The position numbers were made by a program, and so were the translations under genes. DNA of 47,511 nt from Escherichia phage ECO95 1-6-1. The stretch is from sequence record OR845258. The stretch is one strand, 5' to 3'. This document shows, in pieces, positions 15,293 through 15,902 of the stretch. The notes beneath the pieces were generated by a model that ran no database searches, had not been told where the DNA came from, and worked only from the letters and a program-made list of their open reading frames with translations. Each line of letters starts with the position of its first letter. Position 1 is the first letter of the stretch.

Positions 15293-15448
15293 TATACAGA
15301 GAAAGAAAAAACACGACCAAATGTTAGTGTACGCTAGCTAACATATATAGTTACATACATTACTAATAGTAAACTTTGTTTATTAACTATATAAAGTATA
15401 TTGAGATCTTCTTTATATTTATTATAGATATTAATACCTTAAGCTACA

Positions 15449-15478
15449 GAAACACGAAAACCAGCAATTTAGCTGGTT
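15449..15478 (+). terminator. terminator-like hairpin within the AT-rich non-coding region
   Basis: Hairpin ACCAGCAA-TT-TAGCTGGT followed by TATTTTTTAG. Confidence 0.35.
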
Positions 15479-15499
15479 ATTTTTTAGTGGTTTTTAGTT

Positions 15500-15750
15500 T
15501 TTTTTTGGCTTCCCGCGCTTCCTTGAATTTCCTGGAAGCATTTTTTTCTTTGTTTTCAGTCGCTTCTGAGTGTTTTTTGTGTCGCCTCCCGCTTCCCAGA
15601 AAAATAATTTTTGAATTTTAAAACTCTCAATTTTTTTCGAAAATCTTACTTGGGAGCGGGAAGTTGGGAAGCGACAACTTAAACCATTGATTTTTCTGTA
15701 TTTCCGCTTCCCGAGCTAATCTTAACCATTGGAAGCGAAGTTATTGAAAA
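15500..15750. repeat. iteron-like repeat cluster (candidate replication origin)
   Basis: Multiple direct and inverted copies of CCGCTTCCC / GGGAAGCG (CTTCCCGCGCTTCC, CGCCTCCCGCTTCCC, GGGAGCGGGAAGTTGGGAAGCG, CCGCTTCCCGAGC, GGAAGCGAAG) in a roughly 600-bp non-coding AT-rich region between the divergent early operon and the replication operon. Confidence 0.4.
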
Positions 15751-15902
15751 TAAAAGAAAAATCGCCCCTCTGGAAAGCGTTATACTCCTGTTGTGGTGTG
15801 CTGTCAACCACCCACACGGAGCAAAAATCATTCCCGTGTGAATGTGTTTGACTAACTTACTTTTTACCTTTATTCTTTTTTTACCAAACAAAAAGGGGAT
15901 AA

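Follow-up and report, generated by a model that had tools for sequence, protein, structure and literature searches.

What is the function of the 669-bp intergenic gap (15234-15902) that has the leftward operon on one side and the rightward replication operon on the other in this phage? The window, which is the whole stretch of DNA analysed here (47.5 kb), is the complete genome of a virulent siphophage. A partial record, OR850880 (Salmonella phage S.Kent 1-2-1), matches it at 100% identity. The nearest public relatives are Shigella phage Sf11 (Cedarrivervirus), Salmonella phage gmqsjt-1, Escherichia phages ECO111 5-P and Sa179lw (Buchananvirus), and Klebsiella phage YX3973. A first-pass annotation, made from the sequence of the window, proposed that the gap is a replication origin with iteron-like repeats, or else a packaging site. 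The gap is framed by the following elements.

15087-15233, minus strand: final ORF of the leftward small-gene operon.
15264-15292, minus strand: promoter of the leftward operon, sigma-70-like, TTGACG-17 nt-TAGATT (promoter scan).
15848-15876, plus strand: promoter of the replication operon, sigma-70-like, TTGACT-17 nt-TATTCT (promoter scan; conserved in gmqsjt-1).
15903, plus strand: start of the rightward replication operon.

The earlier description of the gap as AT-rich, non-coding DNA at the boundary of the leftward and replication operons is borne out. Its GC content is 34%, compared to 45.5% for the window, and the two mechanical ORFs inside it (15376-15621 on the plus strand and 15679-15891 on the minus strand) lie in sequence that cannot be aligned between relatives. 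That it is the longest non-coding stretch is plausible, with the other ORF-free gaps in the window being at most 351 bp by greedy ORF tiling. A search of Rfam over 14500-16500 at E<=1 finds only a chance snoRNA match, and over the whole window a single tRNA reaches the gathering score.

Two genes elsewhere in the window look like mobile insertions. One encodes an HNH endonuclease (12014-12517, minus strand) and has the terminase genes on one side and the early genes on the other. The other is a 221-aa ORF (35966-36631, plus strand) that adjoins the tRNA-Met gene (37039-37115) and has no counterpart in any of the four genomes compared below.

The gap carries a cluster of short words related to CGCTTCCC, arranged in two arms around a spacer, with further copies on the outside.

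15507-15523, plus strand: two outlying words, GGCTTCCC and CGCTTCCT; relatives have copies at the same offset.
15583-15597, plus strand: left arm, two tandem words CGCCTCC-CGCTTCCC with 7-nt spacing, directed at the spacer.
15598-15651: spacer between the arms, 54 bp, ~17% GC (measured on 15598-15649).
15652-15673, minus strand: right arm, three tandem inverted words GGGAGCG, GGGAAG and GGGAAGCG, directed at the spacer.
15680-15692, minus strand: putative IHF site just beyond the right arm, a perfect match (AATCAATGGTTTA) to the consensus WATCAANNNNTTR.
15705-15712, plus strand: outlying word CGCTTCCC.
15730-15737, minus strand: outlying inverted word TGGAAGCG.
15772-15779, minus strand: outlying inverted word GGAAAGCG, with one mismatch.

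The clustering of these words is far above chance. At up to one mismatch, the window has 41 copies of CGCTTCCC. Eight of these are located in 15507-15779 (~270 bp, 0.6% of the window), and each of the remaining 300-bp bins has at most two. The exact string CGCTTCC is found 13 times in the window (shuffle expectation for the whole window, 4.6 +/- 2.0), and five of these copies are within 15516-15737. The count of at least six copies in the first-pass annotation holds for the 7-8-nt core, but the exact 9-mer CCGCTTCCC is present only twice (15589 and 15704). At least two words are found on each side of the AT-rich segment, in opposite orientation. The arms of the window are partly degenerate (CGCCTCC, GGGAGCG), and the three copies in the right arm of one relative (L032) are better matches. 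IHF-like strings are located at the equivalent place in most relatives, in some of them on the opposite strand. The cumulative G-C curve of the window reaches its minimum at 15889, which speaks for an origin but has little weight, as it coincides with the switch in transcription direction. A DnaA-dependent origin was considered and rejected, with one TTATCCACA-like match (2 mismatches) in the 669 bp.

A detailed comparison was made with the gaps of 14 relatives of the same gene order. The left ~250 bp, up to a hairpin (see below), is almost invariant among the 11 closest relatives. On the other hand, the right ~300 bp is unalignable between relatives, and a blastn search with 15490-15800 finds no match in other phage records, E. 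coli genomes or plasmids, and with it no satellite or plasmid that bears this region. The layout is nonetheless kept in all 14 relatives, with tandem words, a spacer of 50-64 bp, inverted words and outliers. The offsets and the orientation pattern are as in the window, and four different words are used.

CGCTTCCC: the window, L003, L032, the Sf11 type, L046, L051 and L052.
TATTTCCCG: gmqsjt-1 and ECO111 5-P.
TAAATGCCA: YX3973.
TATTTGCCA: Sa179lw, L018 and L044.

These are only four independent word types, and L051 and L052 share intergenic ancestry. The first-pass annotation had named close relatives with conserved replication genes as the place where missing repeats would speak against an origin. 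The repeats are present in all of them, in the same layout and with different words. Among the wider searches for relatives, a metagenome scan added L032, and a DNA-pattern scan of IMG/VR added one locus, L031, which is a chance match.

In many relatives, the AT-rich spacer is bordered by C or G runs of 7-10 nt, often as an inverted pair of a C-run and a G-run (L046, 4520-4529 and 4562-4569; L051, 3517-3524 and 3558-3565; L001, 4384-4391 and 4425-4434; L002, 4383-4390; also L042, L048, L049 and L050). The window does not have them. These runs might be primase start sites or structural boundaries.

Other relatives have the gene order Cro-primase-next gene. A large gap is located just after those genes and contains symmetric arrays of other words, for example six copies of CTAAAGTC, or six copies of CTCTGTAAA nested with four of AGCGTTAGA. 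The array adjoins the primase operon in both gene orders, and in the window it is ~0.66-1.0 kb upstream of the primase start. In one relative (L050, 6619-7373), two copies of AGCGTTAGA stand on each outer side in opposite orientation, with the six copies of CTCTGTAAA inside, which suggests two DNA-binding readers at one origin-like region.

A sister phage, Segz_1 (L043), has a different primase module together with a different repeat-bearing gap at the same position. The module and the gap have been swapped together, which makes the repeat region a part of the replication module. The leftward promoter is kept in Segz_1, as in all the other relatives. The gap of Segz_1 (5035-5547) has its own repeats. 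It contains TTTTTGAGATAGA three times in tandem and TTATACTTTT twice, as well as five of the seven TTATCC copies of the 10-kb locus. Compared with shuffled sequence, the likeness of these repeats to DnaA boxes is not significant.

The conserved left part of the gap consists of two elements.

15293-15458: AT-rich block, 166 bp, 23% GC, conserved at the nucleotide level.
15459-15478 (with T-rich tails to 15485): hairpin AACCAGC/GCTGGTT, 7-bp stem and 6-nt loop, with T-runs on both strands.

In an alignment of 11 sequences, the block is nearly invariant, compared to identities of only 85-94% in the flanking genes. Segz_1 does not have the block, which travels with the Prim-Pol replication module. 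A lenient promoter scan of the block gives at best 8/12 matches and no strong promoter, and no RNA family or repeat was found in it to account for the conservation. The AT-rich flanks of the first-pass annotation are indeed AT-rich, but by this alignment the left one is a separate conserved element and more than filler. The string that was described as a palindromic AT stretch (GCTAGCTAACATATATAGTTACATACATTACTAATAG, 15333-15369) is palindromic in part, at GCTAGC (15333-15338) and TTACTAATAGTAA (15360-15372), and the remainder is not.

The terminator-like hairpin is present as described, and it is conserved and terminator-like in both directions. The stem shows compensatory changes, to AACCCGC/GCGGGTT in L044 (~4405-4430) and to AACCCGG/CCGGGTT in L046 (~4385-4410) and L051 (~3384-3405), with the left flank ACACGAAAA conserved. 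Its sequence resembles that of a terminator acting in both directions, which would shield the repeat array from the region of the leftward promoter. The idea of a small RNA at 15426-15485 found no support.

The replication operon next to the gap encodes the following products.

15903-16130, plus strand: 75-aa gene.
16127-16564, plus strand: 145-aa gene.
16561-18894, plus strand: 777-aa protein with Prim-Pol, PriCT_2 and DUF3987 helicase domains (Pfam), the proposed initiator.
18658-18891, plus strand: C-terminal winged helix of this protein, residues ~700-777 (AlphaFold), the proposed reader of the word.
18891-19286, plus strand: next gene, 131 aa.
19689-20531, plus strand: AAA_24 ATPase, farther downstream.

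The AlphaFold model of the 777-aa protein, based on an alignment of 96 sequences, has a mean pLDDT of 89.4. In the model, the tail of the protein contains three helices (700-716, 721-732 and 736-748) and two strands (752-754 and 767-770) joined by a loop. Residues 737 and 740 are located on helix 3 (736-748), and His763 and Asn764 (H763, N764) are on the wing (755-766). A search with Foldseek matches the whole model to MCM subunits and to Orc1/Cdc6 bound to origin DNA. The model of the tail by itself has a pLDDT of 70 and shows weak matches (E 0.02-0.1) to the winged helices of MarR, Fur, ArsR, RTP and Rpa2. A phmmer search of the primase against the PDB sequences finds no match. By Pfam, AlphaFold and Foldseek, with the matches of the tail being weak, the proposed initiator combines a helicase, a primase and a C-terminal winged helix. 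Helicase activity has been shown for PriCT-DUF3987 proteins, which have a small C-terminal domain (PMC11724360).

The word in the gap co-varies with the last ~57 residues of this protein. Among the 36 variable columns of the primase that are consistent with the word type, 17 are within the final 57 residues. All eight regions with the wing sequence TSHNV have 6-10 copies of CGCTTCCC. These include L046 and L051 (9 and 6 copies), for which residues 1-690 are only ~69-70% identical to those of the window and the gaps are, apart from the words, unrelated to that of the window. In comparison, the six regions with the wing TSNKA or TSNAV have 0-1 copies, despite primases that are 83-94% identical. 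Only five of the 777 columns separate the CGCTTCCC group from the others among 14 proteins. Of these, H763 and N764 alone show no variation within the CGCTTCCC group, and both are replaced in all phages with other words. A further relative, P0005, was picked for its TSHNV wing (74% identical). It has 8 copies of CGCTTCCC, in a gap that resembles the one of L051. The word therefore tracks the wing type in the 14 relatives and P0005, independent of overall identity, which fits the cognate specificity of an iteron origin.

Different words are found in phages of the same host, in the window and gmqsjt-1 (Salmonella) and in ECO111 5-P and Sa179lw (E. coli), and this requires a reader that the phage itself encodes. 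All ORFs of the window were compared with the four full genomes of Sf11, gmqsjt-1, YX3973 and Sa179lw (identities are given in this order). Only the primase (99/93/93/93%) and the next gene are closest in Sf11, which has the same word as the window. The next gene (99/85/84/87%) fits at this first level, but it was rejected as the reader, being near-identical in L001, L005 and L018, which have three different words.

We consider it probable that 15490-15800 is an iteron-type replication origin and that CGCTTCCC is the binding site of the winged helix of the phage's own primase-helicase. Four lines of evidence, which we count as independent, support this assignment and with it the original proposal of an origin. 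They are the inverted tandem words around a spacer of ~17% GC, the same layout with other words in every relative that has this replication module, the co-variation of the word with the tail of the primase and with no other tested protein, and the sister phage with a different module and a different repeat region at the same position. All the defining features of an iteron origin with a self-loading primase-helicase that can be read from sequence are present here.

Binding of the protein, opening of the spacer strands and origin activity are what we infer from these features. The two tandem arrays that face each other (15583-15597 and 15652-15673) would be occupied by copies of the primase-helicase, which would form a helicase ring on the AT-rich spacer of 54 bp and then open its strands. 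The N-terminal Prim-Pol domain would prime DNA synthesis at the opened spacer. The outlying words (15507-15523 and 15705-15779) and the IHF-like site (15680-15692) may help to build or bend the complex.

The words might instead be an operator array with no origin function, through which the tail of the primase (as an autorepressor) or another regulator controls the divergent early promoters. We regard this as unlikely. The array is indeed located between two promoter-like sites, and only 70-120 bp separate the copies at 15730-15779 from the rightward promoter downstream of them. Plasmid iterons beside rep promoters often also autoregulate the rep genes. Moreover, small genes precede the primase in the window as they do in pRN1, where a small repressor gene is located upstream of the Prim-Pol gene (PMC4234260). 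On the other hand, the -35 and -10 elements of both promoters are free of words, the conserved terminator-like hairpin stands between the array and the leftward promoter, and facing tandem arrays around an AT-rich core typify origins rather than operators.

In addition, the candidate regulators do not follow the words. The Cro-like regulator (97/98/95/91% identity) was rejected as the reader, with 98% identity in gmqsjt-1 despite the different word of that phage. The 75-aa protein and the C-terminal half of the 145-aa protein (16364-16561) are paralogs of the family phrog_28700, for which Pfam gives no match. One copy of this family is found in Sf11 and Sa179lw, and two in the window, gmqsjt-1 and YX3973. 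The identities of the 75-aa protein (47/84/32/49%) contradict the words, being 84% in gmqsjt-1 (other word) and 47% in Sf11 (same word), and its putative helix is identical in gmqsjt-1. Neither the 75-aa protein nor its paralog was kept as the reader. By analogy with plasmids, a dual role of the region, in origin function and in regulation, is likely.

Less likely still is that the words are sites of another protein, such as the ParB/KorB-like protein (40625-41434) or a host factor, for silencing, bending or partition. The phage does encode this ParB-like protein, and an IHF-like consensus is located beside the right arm. However, the ParB/KorB-like protein (99/93/81/98% identity) was rejected as the reader, since Sa179lw uses another word and has this protein at 98% identity. 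A host factor cannot account for different words in phages of the same host, and the scan of all ORFs left only the primase and the next gene, the latter of which failed the finer test.

A pac or cos recognition site bound by the small terminase, the packaging alternative of the first-pass annotation, is highly improbable: repeat arrays are known in some pac sites and the linear Sf11 record starts and ends near the gap, but the end of this record is inside the first gene of the replication operon and is hence an arbitrary break, the small-terminase-like gene (11348-11773) is 3.5 kb away, its product shows identities (43% in Sf11, which has the same word; 97% and 99% in gmqsjt-1 and YX3973, which have other words; no match in Sa179lw) that run opposite to the words and reject it as the reader, and Segz_1 shows the gap exchanged together with the replication genes.

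Within the assignment as an iteron origin read by the primase-helicase, parts of the tail can be related to positions of the word. At position 7 of the word, C is found with KRADVER... in helix 3, and G with KR[DE]DVKR... in this helix. At positions 2-4, the words have CGC for SHN wings and TAT or TAA for SNK or SNA wings. These sequence correlations suggest a division of labour between helix 3 and the wing over the word positions, in a code that is incomplete and is drawn from few word types. The word of YX3973 (TAAATGCCA) differs from that of Sa179lw and L018 (TATTTGCCA) at positions 4-5 with no primase column separating them, and the tail therefore cannot account for every base of the word.

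A more specific version of this assignment is that specificity is reprogrammed by a few residues of the winged helix, with helix 3 acting on position 7 and H763/N764 of the wing on positions 2-4, and that at the same time the AT-rich block (15293-15458) and the bidirectional terminator are a further working part of the origin. We propose this combination tentatively, as a possibility with the balance against it.

A natural chimera is found in P0126, a member of the P0001 cluster, which has a helix 3 of the CGCTTCCC type (KRADVERCVEKLLSDG) together with a TSNAV wing. If the two-part code is true, the word in its gap should be TATTTCCC-like. A gap word of CGCTTCCC would mean dominance of helix 3, and TATTTGCC dominance of the wing.

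The type of origin proposed here is already known, but it is new for this phage group. Our literature searches found no replication origin described for Sf11/Cedarrivervirus, Sa179lw/Buchananvirus and their relatives, several of which have been studied for biocontrol or therapy. The comparison yields a precise and testable candidate origin, consisting of two arms and a spacer. It also yields a two-residue hypothesis for the choice of origin by a Prim-Pol/DUF3987 helicase, a class of proteins whose cognate sites are mostly unknown. The results suggest differences in replication specificity among closely related lytic phages, which bear on co-infection, cocktail design and the engineering of minimal replicons. 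If this is true, near-identical lytic phages would be split into replication-specificity groups, which could for example avoid cross-replication or hijacking in co-infection.

The proposed origin has similarities to several known systems. Phage lambda has a phage-specific initiator (O), matching iterons and an adjacent AT-rich region, and the specificity is exchanged between related phages. Its origin is part of the O gene, and the DnaB helicase of the host is recruited by O via P. The window is similar to lambda in its phage-specific (proposed) initiator, the matching iterons and the adjacent AT-rich region, whereas the origin here would be intergenic and the initiator carries its own helicase and primase.

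The alpha protein of satellite phage P4 reads short repeated words (iterons) at ori and crr. The primase-helicase of the window is similar to it in the combination of primase, helicase and predicted C-terminal winged helix with short repeated words, but a second, crr-like cluster of words is missing from the window. In P4 alpha, the primase, the helicase and the C-terminal winged-helix origin-binding domain are likewise in one polypeptide (PMC2777425). The primase of P4 alpha is of the DnaG type and its helicase belongs to SF3 (PMC2777425), in contrast to the AEP Prim-Pol and the MCM-like DUF3987 helicase here.

[quoted passage not shown] A small gene upstream in the same operon is also shared (PMC4234260). 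No cognate site could be found for ORF904 (PMC2777425), whereas a clear iteron array is present here. In addition, the essential non-coding region of pRN1 is downstream of the gene, and its helicase is SF3.

Finally, the locus can be compared with the origins of the SaPIs of S. aureus. The window is a virulent enterobacterial siphophage and not a satellite. Its array precedes the proposed initiator gene, with one or two small genes in between, whereas the SaPI array is immediately downstream of the gene. The words of the window have 7-8 nt rather than 5-6. SaPI Rep is absent from the best 50 fold matches of the whole model. The layout of the iterons is nevertheless the same, as the AT-rich region of SaPI origins is flanked on either side by at least two iterons, which are in opposite directions and are read by the C-terminal winged helix of Rep (PMC9371898). 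The protein of the window resembles Rep and PriRep5 in its proposed winged-helix reader on an MCM-like helicase, and PriRep5 also in the fusion of a primase to this helicase (PMC9371898). As proposed for the phages studied here, the origins and initiators of the SaPIs form cognate, specificity-swapping pairs (PMC9371898).
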